From Balamuthia mandrillaris (Eukaryota), in assembly GCA_031835245.2 (NCBI GenBank), contig JAVKOQ020000007.1:124001-188000 (forward strand): DNA of 64,000 nucleotides. The letters run 5' to 3'. The position numbers were made by a program, and so were the translations under genes. The notes below the pieces were generated by a model. That model had not been told where the DNA came from and ran no database searches. It saw nothing but the letters and a program-made list of their open reading frames with translations. This document shows, piece after piece, positions 1 through 19,567 of the stretch. The first letter of the stretch is position 1, and every line of letters starts with the position of its first letter.

Positions 1-404
1 TTAATTTGTCCAGATCGAAAAGGGTGAAATTGGGGGGCATCAAAGTGGACAGTGTCCTTACCTTACAGTGTTCAGGTTGACGACGAAGAGAAGAAGAACA
101 AGACGCCATGGTTACTTAGTGGAGGAAGAAAAGAGAATGCGAACGAACAATGAACCTTAGGCTGGCTTCTTCGGTGGTGGCAACACATTCATATAAAAAA
201 GATCGGCTTTGCACTCCAAAATAACGATGTAATACCAAAGTCTTTTTGTTAAAAAGAAAGTTTAAACAAAGATAACGACATGAGAGAGATGTTACGAAAG
301 ATGAACAACAAAAACTTTGACGGTCTGGCAACGTCGTGGCAAAGTAGCATACAATAGGCACGCTACCATCACCACAACGGTCCGTCCAACCCAAACCACG
401 ACCC

Positions 405-1577
405 TTACTTGTTTTCCTGAACCCACTGGTACACTTCGTCGCTTCCGCAGCAAAGGGTATCGGGGTTCCATGGACAGCCATGCGCCCTCAACCACTTCAA
501 CACCTCCAATTGGCCCGCCAAAGCGGCCCTCTCGCAGGTGCTCTCGTCCCAAGGGCACCCGTTCTCATGCGCCCATTTCAGCACCTTTAGGTTACCTTGC
601 TCAGCAGCGCCACTGCAGGTCTGCTCGTCCCAAGGACAGCCGTTCTCCCTTGCCCACTGCAGCAGTTCCAAATGGCCGTTCTCAGCGGCAGCAGCGCATG
701 TCCACGAGTCCCAAGGGCAGCCTTGTTCTCTCAGCCACTTCAAGGTCTCCACGTGGCCAGACCTGGCCCCGTGGGTACAAATATCGAGCGAGTCCCAAGG
801 GCAACCGTTCTCTCTTGCCCATTTCAACACCTCCAACTGTCCGTTGGACGCCGCCATCTTGCAGGTGACGTTGTTCCAAGCGCATTTGTTGTTTCGTGCC
901 CACCGAAGCACTTCCAAGTGGCCGTTGCGGGCTGCGTTGTGGCAAGTCCACTGGTCCCAAGGACAGCCTCTCTCCCTGGCCCACTGCAGCACTTCCAAAT
1001 GGCCGTTCTCAGCAGCGTAGGCGCAAGTCCTTTCCGTCCAGTTGCATCCCTGTTGCAAACGTGCCCATTGGACCACATGCAAATGGCCATGGAAGGCAGC
1101 AAAGTCCATCACAAAGTACAAGAAGGCTATCTTCCAATCCGGTCTTTGTCGCATCCACTTCAGCCCTTCCAGATGGCCTTGCTTTGCCAGCACGGTGGCC
1201 ACCTGCCGCTCCTGCCAAGGACAGCCGTACTCCACGGCCCACTTGAGGACCAACAGATGACCGCCCTCGGCAGCCGCCAAGGCGGTCTGGCGATCCCAAT
1301 GACAAGCCTGTTCCAGGCGGAGCCACTGCAGCACGTCCAGCTGGCCCTGCCCGGCGGCTGCCGCGCAGGTTTCATGGTTGGGCACCAAGCCGTTGCCCAC
1401 CGCCCACTGCAGCAACGCCAGCCGGCCGCACAGGTACTTGACGGAGAGGCGGTTGCGCAGGTGGACCGGGGAACAGCGGTACCAGCGGTTGCAGGTCCGG
1501 GCCGCCACGCCCACCGCGTGCTTGGGTAGCTGCGCCATGATGAGCGCCACCAGCTCTTCTGGCAAGTCGTCCTCCAT
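405..1577 (-). CDS. F-box + ankyrin-repeat protein (Acanthamoeba/Pandoravirus-type GCPWD repeats), intron-less
   Basis: N-terminal F-box-like LPEELVALIMAQL..ARTCNRW followed by ~25-aa repeats AA..GHLEVL.WARENGCPWD. Likely ATG at 1577 (MEDDLPEE). Confidence 0.85.
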   Translation of the reverse strand: MEDDLPEELVALIMAQLPKHAVGVAARTCNRWYRCSPVHLRNRLSVKYLCGRLALLQWAVGNGLVPNHETCAAAAGQGQLDVLQWLRLEQACHWDRQTALAAAEGGHLLVLKWAVEYGCPWQERQVATVLAKQGHLEGLKWMRQRPDWKIAFLYFVMDFAAFHGHLHVVQWARLQQGCNWTERTCAYAAENGHLEVLQWARERGCPWDQWTCHNAARNGHLEVLRWARNNKCAWNNVTCKMAASNGQLEVLKWARENGCPWDSLDICTHGARSGHVETLKWLREQGCPWDSWTCAAAAENGHLELLQWARENGCPWDEQTCSGAAEQGNLKVLKWAHENGCPWDESTCERAALAGQLEVLKWLRAHGCPWNPDTLCCGSDEVYQWVQENK

Positions 1578-2035
1578 TTCTTTTTCTTCGCTCTCTCTCT
1601 TGTTAGCGTTACTGTGCTTTCCTTTCTTTCTTTCTTTGTGTGGTGGTGAAAAGAACAAATGGAGCGTAACACGACTTGGCAGGTTTAAAATAGCTGGTTT
1701 TTGGTAAGATTTTCCCCGCCGCGAAGACCACCTTAAGACCCAACAGCCTCCTTAAAGGTGAAACACCCGCCAAGCGTGGCGTGAATAAGCGAAAGGTTGT
1801 GTGTTTTCTCTGGAAATGCCACGAGTTTGCTGAAAATGGACCAAATAAGGGAGGTATCCTTAGCACGAGGTAACGGATTCATTTAGTTCACGATGGGCCC
1901 TTTTTTGGTTGCCGACCTGGGTGCTAGGATATGATCTCTATTTTTGTCCTCTCCAAGGCAACCGGAGAAATGTAATAGCTTTCTTGGAAGGAAACAGATC
2001 GAGAATGAAACCACATTTCTCTATCCTGTTTCACT

Positions 2036-2255
2036 TTAAAAAAAGAAGAATTTCTTGGTTTTTTTCTTTCGCGGTAAGGACAGACGGAGGCCCGTGTTGG
2101 CAGGTTCTTGGGGGTCGTAGGCCAACGCATCGGCCACCAGCTCCCTGCAAAACTGCTCCAATGTCTCTCTTGCGTTCGTGTTTTCCTTTGCGCTCGTCTC
2201 CGCAAAGTCCATTCCGCATTCATCGGCCAACTCCTTATGTCCCAAAACCATTAAC

Positions 2256-2303
<48 letters not shown>

Positions 2304-5300
2304 AGAAAGAGAATAAATAAGGAACGTCATGGATCAAACAGGTGGGACGACAGAACAAACCCTTGCTTCCTCAGATGTCAGCGCATGGAAATCTGGTGGT
2401 ACGTCCACCTTGGTGGCCACCATTATTTTGGGTACCCCATCTAGCGCGTAACGCTCCACTTCAACATTCCAGTTTCTGAACCAATAGCGCAGGGTAAATC
2501 CAAAAGGAAGAAGGAACAGAAGAAGAGGAAGAAGAGAATAAACAAGAAGAACAAGAGGGGCAAGAAACGAGAACAAGGAGAAAGCTTTGAACAAAGCACA
2601 AGAAGTAGCACGTACCTGACATTTTCAAAGCTTACACGATCAGTTACGTCGTAACACAATAACACACCACAAGTTCCACGGTAGATATAACGGTTATGAT
2701 TGTCGCCATAGAATCTTGGGTTCAGGTATGGTTCCCACTGTCATAAAGAGCAGGTGAGCAGAGAGCAGGTACATAATTTAGAAAGCAGAAGAGAGAGAAC
2801 CATTTGCACTTTGACTTTGTAGCTATCCAAATCAAGTGTACCCATTTTCTAAAGGTAATGATAAAGAATAGAGAAGTTAACAAAACCTTGTGACCTGTTC
2901 TTAAGACCGTCCACTACGCCGTACAGTACACAATACGGTTGCAGAATGACTTAGCGTGTTTTTTGTCCTGCTAAATTGTCCACTATCGCACCTAATTTAG
3001 CAGACAGAGGGCCGGTAGTGGACGGCGAGAGTGTCCGTTGGTTGTAGACAAAAAGTAGCCTTCATCCGGCACTCGCGGTCATATGCCGCCAGAGCATGCG
3101 CTTGAGAGTGCCGTTAAAGCGCTCAACAACGGCTTGTGAGTTTGGTTTGTATGGCTTTGATGTAATGTGTGCAATCCCATTCTCTTCCATGAGCAGATGA
3201 TTGACGAACTCTGCGCCGTTATCTGTTTGCAGGATCTTAGGCTGCTGTTCCGCCAATAATGGCCGCAAGTGTCGGGCCACATTCGCCGCAGTCTTCTTGG
3301 TGATTGGGAACGCCCACGCATACTTGGTGAACACATCGATAGCCGTAAGTATGAAATTGTACCGGTCGTTAAACCCGCGCAGTGCACTGACATCCACGAG
3401 ATCCGCTTGCAGGCGTTCGTGCGGCGCCTTCGCCCGAATAGGTTGTTTCACTGCAATCTTACGAATCGGCTGATGTAATTGGTTAGTATGATTCCGCCGC
3501 AGGTATGCCGCAACATCCCGCCGAGATATGCCGATGAATAACTCCACAGCGCGTTTATATAACTTATCCCGGCCGTATGCCATTGTCGCCGGGCTTGCCA
3601 TCAGTTCGCCGAGCACACGATCGATAGCGCCGGCGGGTACTACAATCCGGCCATCATACTTCGCCACAATGGTGTCTTCTGTTCCTTCTTGTAGCCGGAA
3701 GTGCCGCCACTTATCGGCAAAACCCCGCTGTTCTTTCGGCAGGAGATCCGGCAAAGTATTTGTTTGTAAGTATTCCAGCCCGGCATCATATGCTTCATCT
3801 GTGAATTTGTACTGAGAGTAGTCTTTCATTCTCACAGTATACTATACTAAGGCCGACATAAAACGATTACACGTTATCGGTTGACAGACAATATCGGCCA
3901 GTGGATATAAGAATTTCAATGTAGCCTTCGTCAGAATAGATTATATGACCATAGATTGACGAAGGCTACATATTTCGGGGAAGGTAGATAAACTTAGTAA
4001 ATTGTTATTATTACCTCTTCTTCTGTGCTTTGCCGCAAGAAGGCTACTCTCTGGCCAAAAAAATATTTACATTGATGTATGCTTACTACCGCCGCCAGAT
4101 TTACATCATTCGCAGTCCCTTACCGGACTGTTTCTTCTTCATTGAGGCGCCTAGAAAGCTATCAAACTGTGCGCGACTCTTTGGTGTTGGCTTCTTTGTT
4201 GCTTTGGCACTTGGCTTACTCTTTGCCGGCTTCTTCTTACCGGACCCGATCATTCGCATACCACTGCCAGACTTCACAGTGCTACGCACGTTGGCTCCGC
4301 CAACCCCCAACAACTCGCGCACTTTGCCTTTCGCAGTGGACTTCGCACTATCAGCTAGTTGTTCGATCTTGCCGGTTGCAATAGGTTTGATAACGCCTAA
4401 CAATTCCTTTCCCAAAGTACCAACTAATCCTTTAGGATTCAGCGCATTCTTGCCTTTTCTTATTAACTTCTTCAGGAAGCCCCCGCGCTGTAAGTGCGCC
4501 GGACCATACCTGTGTAGGTTTCTACGGTCTATCAACATTGTTTTCGCCGGTTTCACTAAGTATTATACTACAGGCGACATAAAAACAGATCATGTAAAAT
4601 AATCCCGCACAATAGCTTCATTGGCCGCTGTTGGCTCCTGATCGAACACAGTGATGATATCTGCCGGCGATCTACCGGCGTCTCTTTGCTGAATGTAGAG
4701 GACACAGTAATAGCCGCAGAGAACTGTTTTGTCCGTTTGTGTCTGTGTTGAAGGATACAATATTGTGCGCTTGGGTGCAATCCGCCGCAGAAATCGTTCG
4801 AGTTCTGGTGGTGGCACTACTCCGTATGAATCATAGTACTCAACGAATGGGCTGCTCTTCTCGCAATATACAGCGACCCAATGCGAACCCGGTTGCGAGC
4901 GTTTGTCATAGTTGAAGATAAAACTCGCCGGTAAGTTGATTTCTTTTGTCTTCACCTTCTTGGCTTCATCACGGGCAAACACGCCGGCAAATGAAGGCGA
5001 ATCAACCAACATTTCTGTCAACTCAAAGTTGCTCAGAGCGTGGAACCTTTTTTTTTACTGCATTTGCCGCATCCACCGGCTTGCGAGCCCATTGTGTATC
5101 CTAGACGTAATCCTCTGCCTTTCCTTGGCTTTATCTTTCTTCTCACATTACCCTTGCCCGCATTTCCAGTCCCTTTGGGACGTCGAGCACCCGACCCAAA
5201 CAGTTTACCCAATGCGCCGGTTGCCGTATCAATGCCTTTATCAATTAATTTATCAGCAACACCCGCGAGAATCTATTAAAGGCCACTAATACTGGTAAGA

Positions 5301-8300
5301 ACCCACCAACTTGTGGCCGCATCTTGGTCAACTGTGTTTTGCTAAGCCGCAATACTAATCCCCGGTTATCTTTCGCCGCACGCTTTAGCTTCTTCGCCTG
5401 TGTTTTCGTAAGCAGCAGGGCGGCATTAGGTTCAGCTTTCAGTTGTTTTCTTGTGAGTCGAATGTTGGCGCCATGTTGCGCCTTGATAGCCCTCCCTGTG
5501 GGCTTCTGTTGTTGTTCGCTGAGGAAAATCGGTATGTTGTTGTAGTTCGCAGACATTGTTGTTGTATGCGTTGAGAATACACAGTATACTATACCCGACA
5601 AAAAAAATATTGGATTGTGATATTTAGCGGCGATCACAGAGGATTTGCAGACGCTCTCCATCCCCTTTATAATCGAGCTCAGCCTCCGCCTCAACAACTG
5701 CTAACACGACATAGGAAGTAGGTAAAGCATGCGTGCCAATAGTGGCGCCTGGTGTGAACTCAAGGACCATATCCGCAGCAGTTTCATATGAGAATGCGGC
5801 ACGGTCTCCCTTGCTGTATCCGCAATCGAATACAAAGATAGGGTATATGTTTTTGAAGTCTTCATAGGTGACGATACTACCAGACTCCGTATCATTACAA
5901 TGTCTTCCAGCTTGCAAGAAAGATCTGTACAATCGGATATAGTTTTCGTTAGAAGCATGGAAGAAAGGTGCGTACTCAGTCTTGGGCACAGGTTTGCCGT
6001 TAACCATCAGCCGCATATTCTGCATATTCAGAGTATCATATACTGCCTTGTTGATGTTCTGCACGGCTTGCCTAGTGCCGGACAACCGTGCGTTATCTTG
6101 GAACACGACATAAACGCGCTTTGGCTTACGAAGATTGCTACTAAGCAGGAATCTTTGCCGGCCAGAACCACTCATAGGTGAGCTCTGGATAACAAACAGG
6201 TCATTGTAGACGACAGTCTTAGTGGCACCCGCTGCGAGCTGTTTATCCAGCATAGTTTGTACAGAGAGAGAAGCCTGCAATTGAGGAATCCATAAGTTCA
6301 GTTCATCAACTTTGATACGCAAATCATCAATAGTTGCTGTGCCGTGCCTGTTGTTCCTTGGATAGCCAAATTATGTCTGTTGAGAACCAAAGCCAAAGTA
6401 TGACTAGTGCCGCGCCAGACAGATTTGTGATGATACCAGAAGCGGCAAACATCAGCAATAGGTAAGAGTAGAGTGTGAGTAGCACTTGCAAGGTTTTTAT
6501 CGGCCCTGATCTTAAATGATTCAGAATACTTTGAATTTCTTTCAGTTAGCTCTGTGCCGTTATCATTGAACTCCTTTATTTCTACATCAGCACCAGTATA
6601 TGCCTCACGATAGAAACCAGTTCGGGAGCCTAGAGACCGGAGATTGTCTTCACTCCAACAGACCAGATTCATAACATTTGCGGCCACACCAACGGATGTC
6701 ACGTCGCTAACTGTTTTGTTATCAATACTCCATTTGACACGCTCGAAGAGATGCCAGCCGCCGTTAGTAAGAGCCGCCACATGACCAGCAGTCGCAACGC
6801 CGGCGGTTGTGGTAAGTGCAGTGCCATTGGATTGAGTTATGCTACATTTCACTTCCAAATATGCCTCGTTAATCAGCAGCCATGAGGACTTATCGTTCAC
6901 ACGAATAAGGATCTCACTGGTTGGCACGCCGGTGGAAGTGCCACTAGTGGTATAAGGATATCTGACGTCTTCACGATAGGTGGTAGTCTCATCAACGACA
7001 TCGCTGCTGAAGAGATCCCACTCTTGGGTCATTCTCGGGTCGAGTTGTTTCACGGACATTGTTTACTTTACTGAATGCAGGTACTATACTAAAGCAGCCA
7101 ACAAAGAAAAAAATCGTAATATTTACAGGTAGGCTTACCCAACTCACCCAAGCGGGCAACAATGCTGCGGGTGGCAGTGTTAATATCTTCTTCTGTTATA
7201 TCCGCGTGGCTTGTCTTACCGGCTTCAACCATCCGCAGGTAGACTTGATAGCCAACGTTAAGTATTTCACAAAATCACGCTTGGCTTCACGCCGAGGGCA
7301 TTCAAGATATATGCTTGTTTGCTGCCGGCTTCATCAAACACATGCTTCTTTTTATGCGGCTTCTGGATATGGTTGGAGAACATAATCGTTTTGAGTTGCC
7401 ACACAGTAAGGTTTAATTTCTCACATATTTCATTATTGCAAAGGTTCTGCCGGCATAATTCCCGGACTTGATCAATAATTTCCGTCATCTTTGCTCTGAA
7501 CTAATACACACTATACCAGACATAAAAAAATCAATAAATAAATAATTATTGAAAGCCCGCGCCATATACCACATAGTCTATCTTTGCGGCTAAGTCTGTT
7601 GCAAGTTTAGCAAGGCCTCGGATACGCGGGTGGCCCTTCAATAGTTGTCCTGCGTCCTGAATAATGAAGTTCTTTAACTCTGCTGTTAGCATTCCGTTGG
7701 CCGCAAGTATGTCATGTATGAACAGTTGGCAATTGTATCTAGTGGCACTATACAGCCACATCCGGCGTTCTCCCACGGCTTTCAAAGTGCGGGTAAGCAT
7801 TGCGGCAAGCGTTGGCCGGCCTCTCACATTAACCTGCATTGCGCCGCCATTATGCGGGTGTAGGTCTGCTTCACTGGCCAGCCGAGCGCTTACCACTTGA
7901 TTCTTCTCAAGCCGGATAACTTCGCCGGTTTGGAGCCGAAGAACAAGATACAAATGATATAGATTATCGTAATTCAACTTGCGCTGCATTCGGGATAAGT
8001 CTCCTAGTGTTAGGATATTGCCAAGAGTAGTTATTGCTTGTTGGATTGGGCTTCGCACAACGTACATTGAAGTAATCACCGTGTTTCCTTTGGGTTCCAC
8101 AAGCCGGCGGGTTGCCGGTGGAGCATTCAACCTGAGGCCGAACATCTGCCGCAGTGTTGTCTTCACTGCATTGTAATTATCAACGAGACCTTCGCCTTCC
8201 TGTAGGTTAGTTGGATGATTTAGTAGTAGCGATTGCTTGGAATTACTCGCTTTTTTTTTAACCTGCCACCACGCACAGATAGGAACTTCGACTTCCTTGC

Positions 8301-11300
8301 GCCACAGCTTCCGCACTTTGTTAACTGATATCGCCGGCCGTTTGCCGCTACTTTCACAATTGGTTTGCCGGAGTCGGCCGTCTTTCGTTTACAACGGGGA
8401 CAGTACGTAGTCATTGTTGTTCACTTTTTCTTTGTCTGGTATACTATAGGAGTGAGAAAACCAACGAACGAAAAATAAATGACTGATTACAACATTGGGC
8501 AATGGCATATTGTTATCAACACTAATAAGAAGGTTGAGAACACGCCAGAGAGCCGCCGGCTTGTGCGGAAGTTTACGCGGGTTATACAGGATGTGTTCTC
8601 GGAGGAGAACGCAGATGATATGCTTAGAATATTCCAACGCGGGAAGAACCGTGATCCAATCTATTCAATCCAACTAACTTCATCAATTGAGTGGAAATCA
8701 GGCCGGCAAAAGCGGCTGCATGCGCATATTCTTATTTTCATTACGTTTGCCAAAGACAGAAGCTGCGGTTGACATATGACCGGCTGCGGGGATCTGTGGA
8801 AGAAGCATTAGGTATACCGATACATTTCAATGCTAAGTTCTTGGATAAGAAACAAACATTAGAGCAAATGCAGCAGAACCAAATCAACTATGTCCTCAAA
8901 GAATACTTAGGCATAGATAGGAAGAAGAAAGAAGAAGGAGAATAATCGAATATTTTTTTGCCAAGATTTATTTGGCGGCTTAAGTATAGTTGGAGTGAAT
9001 GGAGTTCTCGGATGAACAAGTGAGGAAGCTCTTGCAACATATGTTGGATTCCTGGGGTAAACCAGCGAAAGAGGTAAGTGAAGAAGTTGTTGTTGAACCA
9101 GAACCTATTGCGGAACCATTGCCGGCGGTAAAGAAAGCAGTGCGAAAGACAACAGCCGGCAAGAAGGCGCCGGCAAAGAAGAAGGCTCCGGCGAAGAAGG
9201 CGCCGGTTAGGAAAGCCGCAAGTAAGCGAGCTCCGGCGAAGAAGAGTGGTGCTGCGGCGAAAAAAGAGAAGCCAGTAAGTAGACCGCGAGCCGGCGAGTT
9301 ATCCAAGTATGTCTTCCAACATTATGCGGAGGAGTTTGATAGTGATGACGACAATGTAGCCGAGGATGAGAGCGGTGAGGAGGCCGAAGAGTAAGAGGTA
9401 TGTTATTTTTTTGTGCCGGCTGAGAGTAGCCTTTGTTCGGCAAAGCAAGGAGAATAAGAGATAATAACTGTTTATGACTTCTACCGGCCTTCTTCGGTTA
9501 GATGTAGCTTTCGCCAATCTATGGTTATATAATCTGTTCTGACGAAGGCTACATTGAAATTCTTATATCCACTCGCCATATGGCGAAGGCTACATTTATT
9601 GAAAAAAAGATAACCACCCACCATTTATTGAAAAAGTTATGCCCACTACAATAGAAAGCTACAATCACCTATTTGTTCACTGTACCAGCTAAGCTAGTAT
9701 TTGTAGCTTCCGTCGCTGAAGAACATCTTGTCGACTAATTCTTGTTGCAAACCATGGCGTTCCATAGCTCGCCTTCTCACCATCATAGGGTCTTCAGGAC
9801 GAGTCCCCGGCGCCGCTTCTTCCCTCGTAATCTGAGGCGAACTCGGCGGCGAGTGTACTGAGATAGCATCCAACCCGGCGGTAAGAGACTGCATCGGGCT
9901 TGCAGGTTGTGCCGGCCTACCTTCTGGTTCTTCGCCTTCTTCTTCCTCTTCTTCGTGCTTTACTTTCTCTCGTTGAGAAACCAGCGGAGGAACGCTTTCG
10001 TCATCCGGGAGAGGCGCCGCGTCTGGTTCGCCCTCGAAAGCAAACTTAGTGAAGTTATCGGCTTGCGATTCGCTCTCCTCTTCATCGGCTTCTTGCGCCA
10101 CTTGCTCTTCCTTCGTGCGGTCCTCTTCATCTTGTTGCAGGAGATTAACGCCTTTGATCGTCGGGTGAGCGCCGCTCTTCAGGTTCTTATCAAACTCCTT
10201 CCATTGCTCGTGGTTCATCTCTTGGTGTACCATCGCCACAGTCGGTTGCAGGCTAACGTTAGCTAAGCGGATCCTCTTCTTTTCTTTGCCAATGCGCTTC
10301 CAAAAGCTTGCATGCTCCGGGTCTCTGCTAACATAGTCTCGGAACTTGCTGGCATACTTTGTCGTGTAAGTACACCAACTGCACGGCATATAGATGATCG
10401 CTGGGTAGCGCCTAAGATCATTGTAGTAGCTAACATATCGGCGGACCATAGAATGTGAAACTATCGGCGTAGGGCCGCCGCTGAGGAAGATAGCCAGGCT
10501 CCTAGCGCGGGCTGGATCAGTCGTCCTAAGCTTGGCCACTAGCGCCACGTAATACCCAACTTTCGAGGCATAGGACTACTAGACTCCTTGGCAGCAAAAA
10601 CAACAATATTAATCGTGTTGGCCAGAGTTTGCGAATCATTCCTCACCATAGCTAACTTCTTGAAATCCGCCATAATCGCCTCGTCGCTACCCGGATCATC
10701 CTCGAGGGCCGGCGGTACAACGTCCAAATAAGTGATGTCCCCGGCTGCCATTGTACGTTCGACATACTTGTACTGCTCGTTGTACCAGCGCATGAAGTCG
10801 TGGTCGTCGTCGGACATAGCAGCGTGAGAACGTTTCTTCTTGGGCTTTGGCTTGTCTTTCTCACAGGCCTGTTCGATGAGCTCAGGCGTCAATAGGTTCA
10901 GCATATTGTCAATACCGTCGGTGCCGAGGAGTTCGCAAAGCACGCTAAATTCTGCGTCGTTTAACTTGCGGAGCATCTTGAAGATCTCAGCGGCGTTTGC
11001 CTTCTTTCGGCCGACCTGTCGTCCTTCCATATTGTGTGTTGGTTTGGGCTGCGAAAATTCTCCTGTCACAAAAAAGCCACGTGATAAATTTTGGCGACAT
11101 GGGAAACCTCCATTTTTTAGGACTCCTCATAGTTATATATAATTCTTGTCAGGAAAGACAGGACGACGGTCAAAATGGCAGAGGAAACCTGTGCTCCAGC
11201 AAGTGGGCAAACAGCTCATGAAAAGGCGGCTCACATAGCAGGGGCTTACAACACAAAGATAGCAGAGGTTCACACAACCACTTCACTAAAGGTTGCGGAG

Positions 11301-12682
11301 CTGAACCGTGAAGCCTTATTGCGCAGCGCTAAAATCAGTGCGAGAGCAAGATACTTCCAAGGCACGGCTACATTAATAGGTGCAGTTGGAGTGCTTGTAG
11401 GGCTTGTTTATCGATTACGAGAGGAGTCAAGCTCCTTGAAGATGGACCTTGAACACACAAGAAGTGATCTCGAAGGACTGAAGCAAAGATACATACTCTT
11501 GAAGGACCATAGAAGTTTTCCCAAGCCAGAAGAAGACAACAAACCACTTCCTAATGAAAAGGACGTGGAAAACGCTTATCAATAAGCTACCAGTAGTAGC
11601 TTAAAAATAGCCACTTCACTTTGTAGCAACTGTCATCACACCATTCTTCGCCCTCCACAACCGAAGTGTTTTCTCTTTTTCTTTTTTTCTATTAAATTCT
11701 TTTTCCTCTGACCTACTTGTTAATATTAAGACCGTCCACTACGCCGTACAGTACACAATACGGTTGCAGAATGACTTAGCGTGTTTTTTGTCCTGCTAAA
11801 TTGTCCACTATCGCACCTAATTTAGCAGACAGAGTGCCGGTAGTGGACGGCGAGAGTTCTTTCGTCTTTGTCAAGCAAATATTGAGAGGTACGGTCTGCG
11901 TACTGGATCAGGTGGCGAAGCTTGGTGCTGATACGTATCGGTGAATGTGCCATCCTGGAGTCATTCAAAAACAACAAAGCGAGAGAGAGAGAGAGAAGAA
12001 GAAACATGTAAGTTTAAAAACGGAGCTAGATTAATGCGTTGTATTATCATACGTACGATCATCCTTGTGGCTAAAGATGTCTAATAACAAACGGTTGGTG
12101 TAAGTAAGGTAACTGTCAAAAAAAAAACACAGCTTCACGCCAGCACACTAAACAAGAACTATGCGTTTAATGTGGTTTGACATACCTTGCCAACGCCAAG
12201 GTCGCCAATAATTGCCAACTTCACGAGAAAGTCATAATCGCTAGTAGTTCTATCTCGTGGTCTCACATAAGGCCGCAGTCCTTGTTCTGCCCGTGCCTTT
12301 CTGCGTTTCTCTCTTTGTTCAATGAGTCCTTTGCGGTGATCCAAATAGATTTGTTTCCATTGGCCATCGTTGTTGCTAGTTGCCGTCAACTTGGATGGAG
12401 CCACCTTTGCTAGAAATGGTTTCCAAAGTCTTATAGAAAAGACAAAGCAAACAAGTTGGGTATTGAGGCTTAAAAGAGGCGGAGAAGGAAGCTATGACGT
12501 ACATAGGCTCGCTGCCAATGCGACGAAAGTGTTTGCAGACATGGGTTACGTGAAGGAGGTCATTTACACTAGTGAGGAAGCTGAAAGCGTACAATAACAT
12601 CTCGTCTGGAAGCCGGCGAATACGTACGTAAAGAAACCTGTTATACAGCAAAGCAAGAGAGGGAAAGAGAGAGAGAGCGAGG

Positions 12683-12714
<32 letters not shown>

Positions 12715-12916
12715 TAAAGAAGGGTTAAAGAAGAAAAAAAAAAGGAGAAAAGCCAGGAACAAAACTGTCGATGTAGTCAGCAATGTGAACACATTGGCAT
12801 TCTAGGGCAATGTCGGAGGCAGAACCATTGTTACCCACAGCGCTGACGTCCGCTCCGTTCTGCACCAACAGTTGCACCACCAACGGGCATTTGGAGAACG
12901 GCACAAGGCAAGGCAA
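2036..12916 (-). CDS. Host ankyrin / F-box / divergent Rab-like GTPase-domain protein, multi-exon, interrupted in an intron by the 9-kb element; 5' end uncertain
   Basis: Exons join in frame across GT-AG introns. ANK (VVQLLVQNGADVSAVGNNGSASDIA) and F-box (RLPDEMLLYAFSFL..VCKHFRRI) precede DYDFLVKLAIIGDLGVGK|TSLATRMI|DGTFTDTYQHQASPPDP|[element]|KMGTLDLDSYKVKVQM|WEPYLNPRF..YRGTCGVLLCYDVTDRVSFENVR|..VPKIMVATKVD..|..FAETSAKENTN. Confidence 0.8.
2902..3030 (+). repeat. Left direct terminal repeat (LTR-like, ~129 bp)
   Basis: Identical to 11727-11855 except G3010 vs T11835. Subterminal inverted repeats CCGTCCACTAC (2907-2917) / GTAGTGGACGG (3015-3025) and an internal stem CTGCTAAATT (2968-2977) / AATTTAGCAG (2994-3003). 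Confidence 0.95.
3062..3829 (-). CDS. Retroviral-like (rve, DDE) integrase, Polinton-type; C-terminus appears truncated
   Basis: LQADLVD...LTAIDVFTKYAWAFPI...LQTDNGAEF...PYKPNSQAVVERFNGTLK gives a complete D-D-E triad. Polinton-like N-terminal GRDKLY..ISRRDV..YL..QLHQP. The ORF stops shortly after the catalytic E. Confidence 0.93.
   Translation of the reverse strand: MKDYSQYKFTDEAYDAGLEYLQTNTLPDLLPKEQRGFADKWRHFRLQEGTEDTIVAKYDGRIVVPAGAIDRVLGELMASPATMAYGRDKLYKRAVELFIGISRRDVAAYLRRNHTNQLHQPIRKIAVKQPIRAKAPHERLQADLVDVSALRGFNDRYNFILTAIDVFTKYAWAFPITKKTAANVARHLRPLLAEQQPKILQTDNGAEFVNHLLMEENGIAHITSKPYKPNSQAVVERFNGTLKRMLWRHMTASAG
3900..3971 (+). repeat. Internal inverted repeat, left copy (72 bp), itself containing a 15-bp-stem hairpin
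   Basis: Reverse complement of 9502-9573 with 4 mismatches. ATGTAGCCTTCGTCA (3919-3933) pairs perfectly with TGACGAAGGCTACAT (3957-3971). Confidence 0.9.
4101..4538 (-). CDS. Basic virion core-like protein with putative adenain cleavage sites
   Basis: Lys-rich ORF with QRGGF followed by an amphipathic segment, plus GSG/GKG motifs. Lies next to the protease gene. Confidence 0.6.
   Translation of the reverse strand: MLIDRRNLHRYGPAHLQRGGFLKKLIRKGKNALNPKGLVGTLGKELLGVIKPIATGKIEQLADSAKSTAKGKVRELLGVGGANVRSTVKSGSGMRMIGSGKKKPAKSKPSAKATKKPTPKSRAQFDSFLGASMKKKQSGKGLRMM
4590..5054 (-). CDS. Adenain-like cysteine protease (virion maturation)
   Basis: FAGVFARDE...FIFNYDKRSQPGSHWVAVY...EYYDSYGVVPP...QTQ....CGYYC shows the H-D-Q-C order of adenovirus/Polinton proteases. 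The frame is open to 5054 (ALSNFEL) with no ATG before 5012. Confidence 0.9.
   Translation of the reverse strand, partial: KKRFHALSNFELTEMLVDSPSFAGVFARDEAKKVKTKEINLPASFIFNYDKRSQPGSHWVAVYCEKSSPFVEYYDSYGVVPPPELERFLRRIAPKRTILYPSTQTQTDKTVLCGYYCVLYIQQRDAGRSPADIITVFDQEPTAANEAIVRDYFT
5033..5556 (-). CDS. Polinton-type basic core protein (LLLTKTQ..LSKTQ..VGGFL), frame break near 5275
   Basis: MSANYNN..LLLTKTQAKKLKRA..LRLSKTQLTKMRPQVGGFLPVLVA. The -1 frame continues ILAGVADKLIDKGIDTATGALGKLFGSGARRPKG..KGRGLRL..CSKKKGSTL* ending at 5033. Confidence 0.6.
5624..7059 (-). CDS. Double-jelly-roll major capsid protein (Polinton/adintovirus hexon-like), frame break near 6320-6370
   Basis: ORFs 6298-7059 and 5624-6322 join to ~470 aa. 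Motifs EAYLEVKCSI, NGGWHLFERVKWSIDNKTV, KPKRVYVVFQ, MRLMVNGKPVP, Y.RLYRSF and TYEDFKNIYPIFVFDC are typical of Polinton-family MCPs. Confidence 0.85.
7267..7488 (-). CDS. Small putative helix-turn-helix protein; probably continues in another frame toward ~7100
   Basis: NNEICEKLNLTVWQLKTIM looks HTH-like. The +1 frame after KPSVI reads EILNVGYQVYLRMVEAG.. The element's shared upstream motif precedes the ATG. Confidence 0.4.
   Translation of the reverse strand: MTEIIDQVRELCRQNLCNNEICEKLNLTVWQLKTIMFSNHIQKPHKKKHVFDEAGSKQAYILNALGVKPSVIL
7546..8259 (-). CDS. Permuted NlpC/P60 (LRAT/PPPDE-like) papain-fold hydrolase
   Basis: His motif (LYHLYLVL..LEKNQ) lies upstream of YSATRYNCQLFI, resembling the LRAT-family Y...NCxxF. 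No ATG at the start of the frame; joined to the upstream Zn-ribbon ORF through an A9 tract. Confidence 0.55.
   Translation of the reverse strand, partial: KKKASNSKQSLLLNHPTNLQEGEGLVDNYNAVKTTLRQMFGLRLNAPPATRRLVEPKGNTVITSMYVVRSPIQQAITTLGNILTLGDLSRMQRKLNYDNLYHLYLVLRLQTGEVIRLEKNQVVSARLASEADLHPHNGGAMQVNVRGRPTLAAMLTRTLKAVGERRMWLYSATRYNCQLFIHDILAANGMLTAELKNFIIQDAGQLLKGHPRIRGLAKLATDLAAKIDYVVYGAGFQ
8220..8414 (-). CDS. Small Zn-ribbon protein (DUF5679-like)
   Basis: YCPRCKRKT...NGRRYQLTKCGSCGARKSKF matches the CxxC..NGR..CxxCG.KS.F pattern. Confidence 0.7.
   Translation of the reverse strand: MTTYCPRCKRKTADSGKPIVKVAANGRRYQLTKCGSCGARKSKFLSVRGGRLKKKRVIPSNRYY
8479..8945 (+). CDS. HUH-superfamily rolling-circle endonuclease (Rep-like), frame break near 8755
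   Basis: Motif I-like WHIVINTN, motif II E.....KRLHAHILI, and motif III INYVLKE (YxxK) in the -1 continuation 8691-8945. About 155 aa, with no helicase domain. Confidence 0.75.
8999..9394 (+). CDS. Histone H1-like Lys/Ala/Pro-rich protein with acidic tail
   Basis: AVKKAVRKTTAGKKAPAKKKAPAKKAPVRKAASKRAPAKK repeats and an acidic C-terminus. Confidence 0.65.
   Translation: MEFSDEQVRKLLQHMLDSWGKPAKEVSEEVVVEPEPIAEPLPAVKKAVRKTTAGKKAPAKKKAPAKKAPVRKAASKRAPAKKSGAAAKKEKPVSRPRAGELSKYVFQHYAEEFDSDDDNVAEDESGEEAEE
9502..9573 (-). repeat. Internal inverted repeat, right copy (72 bp)
   Basis: Reverse complement of 3900-3971 (68/72 identical; the 37 bp at 9537-9573 are perfect). Confidence 0.9.
9694..11030 (-). 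CDS. Element protein of unknown function (ORFs 10539-11030 and 9694-10548, probably one gene with a frame break near 10575)
   Basis: The ORFs overlap and the -1 frame reads SYASKVGYYVALVAK. Contains a degenerate CxxC finger (CSWCTYTTKYASKF) and an acidic low-complexity tail. Confidence 0.5.
11175..11585 (+). CDS. Element protein with one predicted TM helix and a coiled coil
   Basis: ATG-initiated 136-aa ORF with hydrophobic ATLIGAVGVLVGLVY followed by heptad-like LKMDLEHTRSDLEGLKQRY. Confidence 0.5.
   Translation: MAEETCAPASGQTAHEKAAHIAGAYNTKIAEVHTTTSLKVAELNREALLRSAKISARARYFQGTATLIGAVGVLVGLVYRLREESSSLKMDLEHTRSDLEGLKQRYILLKDHRSFPKPEEDNKPLPNEKDVENAYQ
11727..11855 (+). repeat. Right direct terminal repeat (LTR-like)
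   Basis: Same-orientation copy of 2902-3030, followed immediately by TSD GTTCT(T). Confidence 0.95.
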
Positions 12917-13083
12917 AATGGGAGAGTCTTGTCCTTCTCCGGAGTGGACGTACTTAGCTTGTGCCCGTTTGCAATTTCCCAGGGGGAATCAAATCACACT
13001 ATCGGCCAACCAGAAATCAGAGATTCTGTTTCTTCTTTCTTATTCTTTTGCCTCCATGCAAGGCCGTGCCGGACTTTGTGTTC

Positions 13084-13172
<89 letters not shown>

Positions 13173-13377
13173 CTCTTCGTTCACCCGCGTTCATCAGTTC
13201 CTCTCATCACCGAACATAATGGATCAGAAAAAAAATATTATGATATATTAGTATTTGTGTTATTTCCATTGCTCTTGCAATACATTTACAAAACTCAAAG
13301 CCCAGCCAAAAAAAAAATATCTTTCTTTATCACAAAAATAAAATAAAACACCAACACCAACACCAACACCATCAAAC

Positions 13378-14512
13378 TCAAACTTGGTCTTCTGCAGAAG
13401 TCGAAGAATCTGAGGAAGTCTCCTTATCATCATCAAAGTCATTCTTCTTCTTGCTCTTCTTGCTCTTCGTATTCAGGTTCTTTAACTGCTTTCTCAATCC
13501 ATCGTTCATACCATTCCTAACATCGCCGTCAAACGCTTCGTCGTCTATCGACTTGTCTCCTTCCGCAACAAACTCACTCCTGTTAGTGACCCTGAACAAG
13601 AGCCCAGCCACAGCGGACGCAAAGAAGGGGCCTAACCAATAGACCCAAACATACTCAAACTTGTCGCCACCTCGATCGATAGCATTCACAATGATGGCAC
13701 CAGTCATCACTGCTGGATTGAAACCGCCTCCAGATATTGGCATATGCTCTGTTTCAGAGGTTTAGAAAGAGAATAGATGATGAAAGAAAGATGAGTCCAA
13801 AGCGACTCAGAGAATAATACGGACGTCCAACAGCGACAGCACCAGCGGTAATGCTGAACCCGATGGCCAGACCGTAAAAGGAGTTACCCACTTGGGTCCG
13901 TGTGGTGGCAGTTTGAATGACGGCGTTGATGAGGAGGAAGGAGAAGAAAAACTCCGCTGCAAATGCTTGTCCAGCGTTGAAACCGCTTCCAGGGGTGACG
14001 GAGAATGTCTGATAAGAAATAGCCCAGTAGGTCTATTTGTTCCAAAACACACAACGTAAACAAGCTGTACAAGTTTAAAAACAAAACAAAAAAAAATACA
14101 AAAAGGAACGTTACCAATGCGCCAAGAAATGCTCCGGTGAATTGCGCACACCAGAAACACACAAGGTAGAACCATGTAAGCTTTCCACGTCCGGAAAGAA
14201 ACACTCCCAAAGAAACCGCTATTTTTTGTTAACAAAAATAGCGTTAAAGAAAGCAAATACAGAATAAAAACAACAATAAAATAATAAAAAGAGAGAAAAG
14301 GTACAAGGGTTGAAGTGTCCGCCAGATATATGCCCACCGGAATAAACCAGTATCATGAGCGTGGCCCCAATGCTGAAAGGAGCCAATTCTCCCCCGGAGA
14401 GAACGGACAAACCGATGGACAGCATGAACATAAAAGTTCCCACCAGTTCCACGATGAACGGAGCAACCTTTCGGCAAACTCGGTCCAGCTGCTCCGGCAT
14501 GATGTAGGCCAT
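13378..14512 (-). CDS. Aquaporin / MIP channel, multi-exon
   Basis: VELVGTF, GGHISGGHFNP(S) and PISGGGFNPAV signature motifs. Confidence 0.92.
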
Positions 14513-14999
14513 TTGTGGTTCTTCTAAAAGTAAGTGTAAAGAGTGAAACGTATGTGACAATAGCAAACAAAAACTGAAAAAAAAAAGCTAGCCGTGTTAA
14601 CAAGTTAAAGTTGGAACGGAATACAAAAGACAGGAGTGGCAAAACACGAAAACATCGTATGAAAAAGGGACTCATATTCTCCGAAGAGACGTCAAAACAA
14701 CGTTATTCCACCTAGAAAGGTTTGTTACAATTGGTTTTAATCACCTATTCAAAACTGTGAATTAATAATTAATGAACCTTTATAGGTGATTTGTAACCAC
14801 ATCGAACGCACCTGCGAACAACCCGGCAACGAACCAAATGGACAAAACAGCGTTACTCTGATATTCATTTTTTTTTTCCGTTGTTTACTTCAGTTTTTCT
14901 TTTGCTTTTCTATTTATCCTATTTGTTTGTTTGTTGTGCTTTGTTTTTGCAAATAGATCATAATAAAAAAAATGAACATTTAAAAGAAGGTTTAGAAAT

Positions 15000-15049
<50 letters not shown>

Positions 15050-15074
15050 AAAGGGAATGGCGCAATCACTACCA

Positions 15075-18066
15075 TCAAGAACAAATAGAACGAAGGTAAT
15101 CGTTGATGAATTGTTGATAGTGCTCCGCAGAGAGACCAGCCGCCACCGCTTTGTCATACAGCTTATGAGCCTGCATTTGGATGTTGCTCTCTTTGCCGCC
15201 CTCCAACAAATAGTTCAGCTTCGCTGCAACCGCCGCGCTCACAAAGTATCTTTAGGGGTTTTTTTTTTCGTGAACGTTTTGTGGCATGAAGAGGAAAAAA
15301 AAACCAAACAAACAAACAAACAGAAAACAAAAAACAAAAACAATGGATCAAAAAAAACAGAAACAGCAAAACTAAAGAGAATCATTGTTGTACCTTTTGT
15401 TAACATCAGCCAGCTGCTGTTGCAACCGTTCCATCTGTTCCTGCTGCTTCTTTGCTTTCTGCTGCTGCTCCGTTTTTTCCTCCTCGAAAATCTTTTCTTT
15501 GACGTCCATCGACAAAACAGTTTTTCTTAACTCCAACTCCAATTCATGTTTGCTCTTCAGCGCTTCCTCCAGTTCTTTGCGAAGTATTTCTGGGTCGTGG
15601 CAATCGCTCAACGACAAAGAAGCAAGAAAAGAGGAGGAAGAGGAGGAAGAAGATGATGAGGAAGAAGATGATGAAGAGGAGGATGATGACGATGATGAAG
15701 AGGACGAAGCAGAAGAAGGAGAAGGAGAAGAGGAAGTCAGAGGAGAGATTAAGTCTTTTGCAGAATGAGCGAGAGCAGCGGTGAGAGAGGAGGACGGTTG
15801 GTGGTCACGAAGCCGGTGTGTTTCCTCTGTCATGTGATTTAATTGTGCTGTTAGGCTTGCTATTTCCACTTTTTGCTTTCGCTCTTTGTCTATATGAAAC
15901 GAGTTAATAAATGAAAAAAAAAGATAACAATCAGATAAGAAGAAAGAAACCTTGAAGCTGAGAAATAGTTTCTTGAGCAGCAGCTAACTCTGTCCGCTGT
16001 TTGCGCAAGACCTCTTCCACGTCTTCTTCGATCCGCCTTGCATTTTTCTTGAGTGCAATAGCTTCCTCTTCGTGCTTCCGTTCTTTTTCTCTCATTGTCT
16101 AATTTGCAAATAACACAAAGAGGAAACCGAAAGAAAGCAAAAAGGTAAGTCGGCGTTGTTGTTTGTGGTTAGTGTGAGTTTGTAAAAACCTGAAGTTGGT
16201 TATCTTTTGACTTGATGATCGCCAAACAATCTTGCAGATTGCCTCTAAGTTGTTCAGATTCACGTCTTTCTCCCTCTAAGTTGTTCACCAATATCTGGAT
16301 TTGTTGTTGCAATTCTGAAAAGAGACACAGATGAGATAAAGAGATAGAATGAGAGGGTGCAATAGTACGTAAGATGATAAACTGCGCTTGTTGGTCTACA
16401 GCCACAAGTTGTTCCTGCGTAGCATCCTGATGATGAGGCTGCTGTTGATGATGTTGCATGCCAGCATGATAGCTGGATCCCAACGCAGCTGGCGATTGAC
16501 TAGCTAGCTCATTATGAGGAGGGCTTAGAGAAGAAGGAGGAGAGGGAGAGTGCCTCGAAGGAAAGGACCCTCCCGACGATGGAATGCTTTGATAATAAGC
16601 GACATCGTAGAAAGAATGACGTGGCGCTTTTCTTCTATTTCTGGAGTTATTGTTCGTTTGCTGCGCGGTTTTTGCAGATTGAGTCCCACCTTCAGAAGCT
16701 GTCGCTGCGTTTTCGTTGTTATTAGTTTTGTCATTAAAGTTGTCGCTGTTGATGTTGTTGTTGCTCGCTGTATAATGAGTTGCAGCTCGAACATTTCTGC
16801 TTTCTCGTCGCGAATTTTCCTCCTCTTCCTCCTCCAAGAAGGAAGTCGGTTTGCCAACCATCGGACTGGAAAGACTACGAACGAGAACATGAGGAGAAGA
16901 ACCAGAAGAAGACGACGACGATGACGAAGGAGATGGTGGTGAGGAGGGTCTGTCGATTGTTCTCCTCCCCACAACACCAAAACTCCCTACAACGCTTACA
17001 CTGTTTCCTCCACTTTCACCGGAACTGCCGCTTCCACTTCCACTGGCAGAGGTGTGTCGATTGATGAGGCTGCCACCACCAGCCGGCATGGCAGACGCCA
17101 ACAGCTCGTTGGCTCTCATGTGCACGGTCTGGCGTTGCAGCCGGATGGAGCGCTCCACGTCCTCCTTCTGCGACATGAACAACTCGCGGTACTTCTTTAT
17201 CCCATCCAACCAGTAGAGCATGTCCACCTCGGAGGAGGCCACCAGCTTGTAGTCCCTGTCCTTAGTGGCTATTACGAAAGGCCATGAGGTCTGTTGCTTA
17301 CTGCTGTTGCTTTGGTTGCTACCACCTCCGGTGCTGCCTGGTGGAATGCCTAACGCCCCTTTGGAGTAGCATTGGCTGTAGATGCGTGTGCATTGCTCCA
17401 ATGCGATGAAGCCCAGTTCCTGTTGTCATCGTTTTGTTGTTTTGTCACGAGGTTGAAGAAGAAGAAGAAGAAGAAGAAGAAGAAGAAGAAGAACAAGAAC
17501 AAGAACAAGAAGAAGAACAAGAAGAAGAACAAGAAGAAGAACAAGAAGAAGAACAAGAAGAAGAAGAACAAGAAGAAGAAGAAGAAGAAGAAGAAGAACA
17601 AGAAGAACAAGAAGAAGAACAAGAAGAAGAACAAGAAGAAGAACAAGAAGAACAAGAAGAAGAAGAAGAAGAACAAGAACAAGAACAAGAAGAAGAACAA
17701 GAACAAGAACAAGAAAAAGAACAAGAAGAACAAGAACAAGAAGGAAGAAGAAGAAGAAGAACAAGAAGAAGAACAGAGACAAAGACAAAATTGAAGAAGA
17801 AGAAGAAGACGAAGAAGACGAAGAAGAAGAACAACAACGAGAACAGAGAGAATCCATAGAAAGAAGAAGAATCGGTCTTTCAGTACCTCACTTTTAGGAG
17901 ATTTGCTGTAGGAAAGTTTGCCTTTCGAAAGCCAAAACCACCGCTTCTTGAAGGTGCGCACCAAGCCCTTCGCTCCTAACTTGTACAAATAACCTTCCAA
18001 TTGGTAGAGCTTTTGGTTTGTTTTGTGTTGTGGGAGATCGATCGGGAATTTTTTAAAAAAATCCAT
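15075..18066 (-). CDS. PH-domain + coiled-coil protein, multi-exon
   Basis: LEGYLYKLGAKGLVRTFKKRWFWL..ELGFIAL..FVIATKDRDYKLVASSEVDMLYWLDGI is a PH domain. Downstream exons are Ser-rich and coiled-coil. Confidence 0.8.
17455..17835. repeat. (AAG/AAC)n microsatellite in an intron of the PH gene
   Basis: About 380 bp of GAA/CAA triplets. Confidence 0.95.
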
Positions 18067-18451
18067 TTGAAATAAAAGAAAGTTAGTATTCCCGACACAC
18101 AAGACACAACCCACAAGTCCTGACCATACCTTCTCCTGTTCCTCAAAGGAGTGCAACATCTTATGGAGGCCTCCCCACTCCTGCCACTATTAAAGCCTCC
18201 TTTGTTTCGGCGATCTTTTTTTTCTGTTTTTGTGGACAATCCATAGGGATAACCGAGTGACGTCAAAATTTTCGTTTTTAGACGCGCATGACATCAGCGT
18301 AGTTAATTAATCGATTATCTGAGATTTTTAAATAAATATTAGAAATCGGTTAATATTTTAAATATTACCCAATATAAAGTATATATTGCAATATTTTGTA
18401 ATTAATATTAAAATATTGCAAAAATTATAAAAGCAGCGTCGAATTGTCGTT

Positions 18452-19511
18452 TCAGTTGACGACTTTCTCCTTTGCGGCAGCGATCTCCTTGTCCTTGAGC
18501 ACGCGGCGGAGGATCTTGCCGCTCATGTTCTTTGGGATCAGGTCCACAAACTCCAGCCCACCGCGAAGCTTCTTGTAAGGGCTGACTTTGTCGTCGAACC
18601 AAGCGATGAGCTCCTCGGCGGTGAGGCTGTGATCCTTCTTCAAAACGACGTAGGCTTTGGGCAACTCTCCCGCCTCGTCATCCGGTTTCCCCACCACAGC
18701 GCAATCCGCAACTGCTGGATGAGTCAACTGCATTTATAAATGGCGGACATGAGAAGGAAGAAAGTCAAATGAAGCAGAATATTGAAGACTAAAGAAAGAC
18801 CAACACACAACGAAAGCAAAGAAAGAAGAAGAAAAACAAACCAATTTGCCTTCAAGTTCAGCGGGAGGAACTTGGAAGCCTTTGAACTTGATGAGCTCTT
18901 TGAGGCGATCCACCACAAAGTAGAAGCCGTTCTCGTCTACGTGACCAATATCTCCTGTGTGCAGGAAGCCATCCTTATCCATTATGGCTGTTGGTTATCG
19001 AGCCATTAGTCTTCATAGAACAGAGCAAGAGAGAGAGAGAGAGAGAGAGGAGTAGAAAAAGAAAAGAGAAAAAAACAGAGAGGAACAATAGAAAAGACAG
19101 TAGGACAAGAGAAGAGAGGCGAAGAAAAGAAGAAAAATGAACCAGCAGTAGCATCAGGACGCTTGTAATAGCCTTTTTGTTTGAGATGGTGTTGTGTGAT
19201 GAAAACATAATAGTAATCAACAAAAAAAAAAATAAACAAACAAACACAAAAGCCAAACAAAGTGATGAAAAGGAAGCTACCTTTCATGATATTGGGACCG
19301 CGAACACATATTTCACCATCCTGGTCAACGCCCACAAACTCACCGGTAGCGGGGTCTTGTATTCTGGCCTCCAAGTTGGGGAGAAGGATGCCAACCGATC
19401 CTGCTGGCGCTTCCCTGGAAGGTGCTACAGAAGGACCGAAATGAAGAAACAATTAAAAGAAAAAACGTTAACAACAAAAACTATCAGCTTTGTGGGGAGG
19501 GAGGGAGAGGG

Positions 19512-19567
<56 letters not shown>

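Follow-up and report, generated by a model that had tools for sequence, protein, structure and literature searches.

Elements of the MELD/adintovirus-like group, described from protists (Trichoplax, Capsaspora, Physarum; PMC8502044), share their MCP (major capsid protein) family and rve integrase with the locus described here, which also has a candidate for their adenain-like protease, and a replicase other than protein-primed PolB (pPolB) is common among them. Polintons/Mavericks and polinton-like viruses (PLVs) resemble it in the double-jelly-roll (DJR) MCP, in the protease (a candidate at our locus) and in an rve integrase with a 6-bp target-site duplication (TSD) (PMC12220804, PMC10120064). 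Like our locus, the entomopoxvirus-associated PLVs behind the end-module turnover model consist of mosaic modules (PMC11296320). In these viruses repeats have been proposed as origins and internal repeat copies occur near end modules (Gezel-14T), but they use a tyrosine recombinase and a primase-helicase or pPolB. An HUH endonuclease accompanies an rve integrase in the PLV-sized Mriyaviruses and Zoravirus/VC218 groups (10.64898/2026.06.19.733378), which differ in their NCLDV-like capsids, Mriya48 and 20–45 kb size, whereas the MCP reported here is of the MELD/adintovirus kind. Two further systems are analogies only: the rudivirus stand-alone HUH Rep, a small HUH protein that acts at hairpins without a helicase (PMC6668415), and bacterial GTAG-tagged REP/RAYT, whose inverted units begin with GTAG and lie at gene 3' ends.

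We analysed a 64,000-nt stretch (the window) of Balamuthia mandrillaris (GCA_031835245.2, contig JAVKOQ020000007.1, 124,001–188,000, forward strand). It contains a MELD/polinton-like provirus of 8,953 bp that sits in a host region with a Rab-like gene. Direct repeats of 128 bp (DRs; 2903–3030 and 11728–11855, both + strand, one mismatch) and the TSD GTTCTT (2897–2902 and 11856–11861) enclose it. The left DR is internally palindromic (fold z −2.9). An empty allele, with a joint 2896->11856 and 6 shared letters, occurs in the public runs X1 and X2, which represent one sample that may be the source of the window itself, and in X10, a second sample. This shows that the element inserted as a whole, from DR to DR. 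As in strict polintons, an rve integrase is present together with a 6-bp TSD; unlike in Polintons/Mavericks and PLVs, the insertion ends carry TSD-flanked direct repeats in place of terminal inverted repeats (TIRs), the inverted repeats are internal, and a Pfam scan of 16 ORFs of the window copy found no pPolB. The provirus differs from the MELD/adintovirus-like elements in its size (~9 kb), its direct rather than inverted terminal repeats, a stand-alone HUH protein and internal hairpin cassettes, and in a window copy without recognised ATPase, penton or helicase. It is a new combination on a known kind of element, with direct repeats as its ends, an rve integrase, a small putative HUH protein and internal cassettes that resemble origins. 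Literature on Balamuthia with polinton or capsid yielded no account of this provirus, and supplementary tables of large PLV surveys (PMC10120064; a 2026 preprint) may list these MCPs.

Two inverted repeats, arms A and B, divide the element internally, and the initial annotation had them enclosing exactly a virion and Rep module. The genes are placed as it described, but "exactly" goes too far: a scan of 16 ORFs of the window copy recognised no packaging ATPase, minor capsid protein/penton, helicase or polymerase. ATPase and minor capsid genes could sit in the extra DNA of other copies. Most of the enclosed genes lie on the minus strand. The MCP (5624–7059, −; PF21738, E 3e-4) is a double-jelly-roll protein akin to adintovirus/MELD hexons, with 324 relatives that include the Trichoplax MELD virus hexon. 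It is split between two frames near 6300, and the split recurs with 0 differences in an X1 contig (5120–7007). Beside it lie an adenain-like cysteine protease with no in-frame ATG (4590–5021, −; Peptidase_C5, E 0.025, below cutoff), a Zn-ribbon protein (8220–8414, −; DUF5679, E 3e-5), a small ORF of no assigned function by the ORF list and Pfam scan (7267–7488, −), and two ORFs named from motif resemblance alone, a basic core-protein-like one without a Pfam match (4101–4538, −) and a small basic core/cement-like one (5245–5556, −). An NlpC/P60-like label given earlier to the ORF at 7546–8316 (−) gained no backing: there was no such Pfam family at E<=1 and no PDB match, and the structural model had a pLDDT of 34. 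On the plus strand are a histone H1-like basic protein (8999–9394; HC2, E 5e-7, below cutoff) and a candidate stand-alone HUH (Rep-like) endonuclease (8479–8945; REP_ORF2-G2P, E 0.033, below cutoff), which, like the MCP, is frameshift-split in this copy. With motifs II (HUH) and III (YxxK) defined as in PMC6668415, HAH lies in frame 1 and YVLK in frame 2; Atlas neighbours at 0.84–0.91 carry REP_ORF2-G2P or 117-like_vir. These motifs and sub-cutoff family matches are leads to a putative HUH assignment, not proof. The provirus departs from REP/RAYT in being a eukaryotic integrated virus with a motif III of YxxK Rep type and no Pfam match to the Y1_Tnp/RAYT transposase at E<=1. As single-protein queries of viral contigs, the N-terminal half of the MCP, the integrase and protein P0005 gave 0 loci, and the MCP half had no match among longer proteins; alignments of the MCP relatives diverged too far to serve as the seed of such a scan.

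The claimed 72-bp inverted copies are real: arm A (3900–3971) matches the reverse complement of arm B (9502–9573) at 68/72 positions, and microsatellites aside this is the longest inverted pair within 1–20000. The extent of 72 bp holds for the core, but homology runs further, from 3891–4065 to 9404–9581 (180 columns, 79%, E 2.7e-36), and includes inner extensions at 3972–4065 (−), a T-run with a GAGTAGCCTT site lying 3' of the leftward gene block, and at 9404–9501 (+). Arm A consists of a 19-nt outer tag and a hairpin, which we confirmed as a perfect 15-bp stem (3919–3933/3957–3971) around a 23-nt loop (−14.9 kcal/mol, z −6.5; 0/200 shuffles as good). The right hairpin is weaker (−8.0, z −2.4; 6/200 shuffles as good), and its mismatch at 9509 has no compensation. 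A third half-site (9581–9595, within a fold-back segment at 9576–9595) pairs with 9502–9516 at 14/15 positions. Within the element the motif GTAGCYTT is present 9 times, against once in the remaining 55 kb (0.65 expected; maximum 4 across 300 simulations). The arms are a conserved hairpin and GTAGCYTT-site cassette at module borders. Arm patterns found 0 matches in a collection of viral contigs, and a loose pattern found 1; 50 metagenome contig stretches (49 loci) proved to be unrelated hairpins, with 0 relatives of 15 element proteins and arm homology of at most one 21-nt match.

In other copies of the family the cassette again lies next to H1 and next to the integrase, and there it also has a third neighbour that the window copy lacks. 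Arm position is kept from H1 to arm and from arm to integrase promoter, but not from arm to ORF2. A 3,072-nt contig (depth 126) connects ORF2, at 10114, with the inner side of an arm, and the outer side of arm B leads in X1 and X10 into unrecognised sequence behind 9621. Depth arithmetic on unitigs of one run, in which none of the contigs covers another copy from end to end, gives an arm-core depth of 444 against a single-copy depth of ~36, or ~12 arms for ~3.7–4.5 element copies, from which we infer about three arms per copy; the count may instead reflect a two-arm copy whose genes are ordered differently, or elements that carry arms separately. Among the pieces listed, divergence from the window is similar outside (93–99%) and inside (90–96%) the arms, and X1 covers the inner and the outer modules about equally deeply. 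The MCP/core segment (~5195–6978) of other copies aligns to the window in patches only and a second Balamuthia MCP is 56% identical to that of the window, so this capsid-gene swap has its breakpoints inside the arms. In X10 the arm maps while integrase, core and MCP do not at 85%, so the arm sequence, including the loop, is more conserved than these genes. In other copies, moreover, 9514 and 9583 change as a pair and the half-site region is duplicated in tandem; both suit fold-back copying. No free arm-to-arm unit was seen among assembled contigs.

We read the arms as the virus's own hairpin cassettes, probably origin or nick sites for the small HUH protein, and not as the ends of a captured 5.7-kb virus; we give this reading a probability of roughly 0.45. 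That they act as hairpin origins is plausible and our preferred interpretation, on circumstantial sequence grounds. A typical copy would have some three cassettes and be longer by at least 3 kb, and the window copy would be a decayed derivative that lost this block beside arm B. Each cassette would face the 3' end of a gene block, and the inverted orientation would therefore follow from divergent transcription. The GTAGCYTT sites would be putative binding repeats, and the hairpin would be nicked by the HUH protein for rolling-type replication, which would begin once the provirus is activated, probably by a helper giant virus. Such nicking and replication would make the arms rearrangement hot spots.

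Against an origin function, the HUH gene is split in the window copy, no helicase was found among the 16 ORFs scanned, and the 9509 mismatch is uncompensated. The DRs are hairpin-rich too in the fold test, which likewise counts against the arms, and the DRs could be the real origin.

The main alternative, less probable than the origin reading, is that the arms are duplicated terminator or 3'-processing cassettes of late gene blocks, which gene conversion would keep similar and which would be inverted through the outward-pointing genes. Coming from the inner side, a T-run leads into each arm ~10–45 nt past the stop of the last gene, and GTAGCYTT is also present at the 3' ends of the integrase and ORF2; the change at 9509 would make a G-U pair in H1-sense RNA, and virophage and transpoviron genes are described as flanked by terminator hairpins and late promoters (PMC7031253). 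This reading fits less well with a loop and 19-nt outer tag that are kept in sequence, not just in structure, even in X10. The internal genes have no hairpins of the arm type, and ORF2 has two AATAAA signals of its own outside arm B (9595–9629, −; ~9621 is the point where other copies run into unrecognised DNA), where the contig of its 3' part in run X3 ends at 9619.

The origin reading might be extended, in a form we consider doubtful, to a eukaryotic virus family that integrates as an LTR-like DR-ended unit via its rve integrase. Several internal hairpin cassettes tagged with GTAG, which the family's own small HUH enzyme would cut, would serve both its replication and the reshuffling of its gene blocks. 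Sub-genomes running from arm to arm, as circles or with hairpin ends, would be copied from the provirus and capsid modules would be exchanged, amounting to REP/RAYT-like shuffling inside a polinton-like virus. The locus bears on two open questions, the way in which polinton-like viruses without a polymerase replicate and the cause of their strong mosaicism. It offers a compact test case: the candidate origin is delimited to 72 bp and the HUH candidate has 150 aa, the DR ends come with a proven 6-bp TSD, the empty site is polymorphic, and the silent genes with the late motif are cleanly separated from the right-hand genes, which appear to be expressed.

Very unlikely, in our view, is an earlier proposal that a separate direct-repeat integrase transposon captured a 5.7-kb virus with hairpin or TIR ends. 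It would account for the position of every recognised virion gene and the HUH between the arms, and end-module replacement has been proposed for PLVs (PMC11296320). The integrase (3062–3829, −; PF00665, E 2.8e-12), which ends just past its core domain, lies outside the arms and shares the promoter-like motif of the inner genes, a T-run followed by AGTATAGTA (3837–3868, −). A position weight matrix trained on 7 inner genes alone scores this motif at 22.4, above the best non-element position (19.5), and the tetranucleotide correlation of integrase and inner module is 0.65, compared with 0.45–0.70 for six inner chunks and at most 0.51 for 60 host chunks. The integrase and the inner genes have one promoter motif in common, and in contrast to the end-module turnover model neither promoter nor composition marks the integrase as foreign to the virion module. 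A GTAGCCTT site over the integrase stop (3042–3071, +) forms a further inverted pair with 4031–4060 (30 nt, 77%) that brackets the integrase, and it matches the extension type of other copies (the loose end before 9451). Also against capture, the arm pair lacks a flanking target duplication at each of 9 offsets, the inner module lacks a recognised ATPase, penton or replicase, the whole DR-to-DR unit inserted, and other copies place ORF2 at an arm's inner side, with an arm between ORF2 and the rest and extra DNA.

The right-hand block lends the capture proposal some further support. ORF1+ORF2 (9694–11030, −; two frames here, one in another copy, P0156) and ORF3 (11175–11585, +; 136 aa) have no assigned function and no late promoter motif. 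Since their composition resembles the inner module less (0.40–0.43 for ORF1/2, 0.36 for ORF3), the block may be of separate origin. Run X3 contains ORF1/2/3 (ORF3 at depth 376) without arms or inner genes, and was the candidate for an outer-only copy; it lacks the integrase too, and it skips host introns, one of three skips being exact GT-AG, so X3 is likely RNA and expression is the more likely explanation. Protein searches with ORF2 and the HUH candidate returned Balamuthia annotations only. A thioredoxin-like identity for ORF2 was dropped, as all Atlas matches fell under 0.9, and its extension into a long replicase in other copies was ruled out by P0156 (334 aa).

Least probable is that the arms are recombination sites chiefly flipping the inner module, as isomers or a 2-micron-like amplification switch: the inverted 72-mers are near-identical with dyad symmetry and the ORF1/ORF3 intergenic segment is inverted within the family, but no tyrosine or serine recombinase was found in the Pfam scan of 16 ORFs or a further protein search, a flip would change little where each gene has its own promoter, and the 3,072-nt contig, with a third type of extension, accounts for an opposite-strand joint 4018->9455 that had suggested inversion. 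Contigs break within the core that the two arms share. That intergenic segment (11042–11172) is divergent and TATA-like; its inverted part (~11066–11142) is marked in other copies by opposite-strand joints 11041->11142 and 11066->11173, and it contains a 7-bp inverted repeat at 11061/11157.

The element spans 2903-11855 (8,953 bp) and ends in 128-bp direct repeats that differ at one base, with GTTCTT on each side. Among public sequencing runs, X1 and X2 (one sample, which may be the window's own source) and X10 (a different sample) contain the empty site, in which 2896 joins 11856 with six shared letters, indicating that the whole unit from direct repeat to direct repeat was inserted. Its integration is via the integrase (3062-3829, minus strand), which carries an rve domain (PF00665); PMC12220804 describes 6-bp target duplications as typical of such integrases. 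Proteins matching those of the element are labelled Balamuthia mandrillaris in NCBI, which identifies the host. In its workings this is a provirus of the MELD/PLV kind. It differs from a strict polinton in having neither pPolB nor TIRs. Zoravirus/VC218 groups, as outlined in a 2026 preprint (10.64898/2026.06.19.733378), also pair HUH with an rve integrase. The direct repeats (2903-3030 and 11728-11855) have terminal and internal inverted repeats of their own (fold z -2.9) and resemble LTR ends without a reverse transcriptase.

The C-half of the MCP had 324 relatives at E<=0.001, including the Trichoplax MELD virus hexon and a second Balamuthia MCP (56% identical). HAH and YVLK motifs (defined after PMC6668415) are present in the HUH ORF, but in two frames, and its links to REP_ORF2-G2P fell below cutoff. 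The 16 ORFs scanned included no recognisable ATPase, penton, helicase or polymerase. The window's copy of the element is defective: MCP, HUH and ORF1/2 (9694-11030, minus strand) are split, the MCP split recurring in an X1 contig with 0 differences across 1,888 nt. The 42 nt separating ORF1 from ORF2 (10574-10615) are a single letter in other copies.

The inverted 72-nt pair described in the initial annotation (arm A, 3900-3971; arm B, 9502-9573) agrees at 68 of 72 positions, and the perfect 15-bp stem described for arm A was also recovered, enclosing a 23-nt loop and folding better than all 200 shuffles; the arm B hairpin is weaker (6/200 shuffles equally good). Homology continues beyond these cores, decaying inward (3891-4065 versus 9404-9581; 180 columns, 79%, E 2.7e-36). 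A third half-site (9581-9595) pairs with 9502-9516 at 14 of 15 positions, and a 30-nt inverted pair (3042-3071/4031-4060) lies on either side of the integrase. The octamer GTAGCYTT occurs nine times in the element, always at a module border, and once in the remaining 55 kb (0.65 expected).

The arms are most likely copies of one native cassette that recurs wherever a gene block reaches its 3' end, a placement that would explain their inverted orientation. Their likeliest role, with a probability of roughly 45%, would be as an origin or nick site, a reading that draws on the conserved loop and outer tag, the repeated octamers resembling binding sites, fold-back copying and the stand-alone HUH gene. 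Replication would probably resemble that of HUH-initiated replicons, and the origin idea of the initial annotation is plausible. Bacterial GTAG-tagged REP/RAYT elements may be likened to the arms by analogy only; a family search of the element ORFs gave no RAYT match.

The main rival, less likely than an origin role, is that the arms are late-gene terminators, much as virophage and transpoviron genes are flanked by terminator-type hairpins according to PMC7031253. In run X3, a window-type ORF2 contig stops at 9619, close to two AATAAA signals outside arm B, suggesting that ORF2 termination is independent of the arm. Within the element this run covers ORF1/2/3 only (9619-11740). Host introns are skipped in X3 (three skips, one of them an exact GT-AG at 2476-2615), which favours a transcriptome over a copy of the element reduced to its outer part. 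Depth was ~21 over ORF1/2, 376 over ORF3 (11175-11585, plus strand) and ~14 over the host gene, with integrase, arms and virion genes uncovered; the right-hand block appears to be expressed and the remainder silent.

Capture of a 5.7-kb virus between the arms, with the integrase outside, is improbable, and the nested model of the initial annotation mostly lacks support. A promoter-like motif (T-run, GTC/GCC, AGTATAGT; 3837-3868, 4558-4589, 5579-5615, 7079-7110, 7506-7537, 8423-8470, 8963-8994) precedes the integrase and seven inner genes by ~14-37 nt and is absent from ORF1-3; it suggests a late promoter used by a helper virus. By a matrix trained on the seven inner-gene upstream sites only, the integrase site scores 22.4, versus 19.5 for the best position outside the element. 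The tetranucleotide profile of the integrase correlates with that of the inner module at 0.65, compared with 0.45-0.70 among six inner chunks and at most 0.51 for host chunks (n=60), while ORF1/2 and ORF3 are less similar (0.36-0.43). A search for a target duplication around the arm pair found none.

In X1, the window allele has a depth of ~36 and other copies add ~97-126. The longest listed pieces of these copies match the window at 93-99% outside the arms and at 90-96% between them, and identity does not jump where the arms lie. The core/MCP segment (~5195-6978) aligns only in patches, which places the breakpoints of that exchange inside the arms. This segment is swapped for a diverged version, that of the second MCP, between flanking genes 93-96% identical. 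Other copies keep the H1-to-arm order and the arm's outer side adjoining the integrase promoter; on the outer side of arm B, a minimum of 255 nt of unmatched DNA follows 9621, in X10 as well. There, the arm maps beside a diverged H1-like neighbour, and mapping at 85% places neither integrase nor core nor MCP. A 3,072-nt contig joins the inner side of an arm to ORF2 at 10114. This third type of inner extension accounts for the sole opposite-strand joint at the arms. Contigs end within the core that the arms share. A dedicated flip switch for the inner module would be an unlikely role.

Depth arithmetic on the arm-core unitig (444) gives ~12 arms per ~3.7-4.5 element copies; we infer that a typical copy has ~3 arms and that the window copy has lost 3 kb or more in one block, though the gene order may be a different one, every contig falling short of a complete copy. 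For PLVs, PMC11296320 proposes turnover of end modules. The long hairpin pairs 9514 with 9583, and these two positions change jointly (C-G in the window, T-A elsewhere); the partner of a change at 9509 is not altered alongside, and other copies carry a tandem duplication of the half-site region. In the higher-depth copies, part of 11042-11172, which separates the divergent ORF1 and ORF3, is inverted; a TATA-like stretch in this segment bears a loose resemblance to the arm loop.

Nine metagenome loci from a hairpin pattern search (L002, L004, L006, L023, L027, L030, L034, L035, L040) have a common long GC-rich palindrome, with core GTAGCCTTCG...CGAAGGCTAC and outer arms like TGATGGTCAC/GTGACCATC; they probably form one family of bacterial hairpin repeats, unrelated to the element. 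The host ORF at 405-1658 (minus strand) contains tandem 27-aa ankyrin-like repeats, which we take to be of the kind found in amoeba giant viruses.
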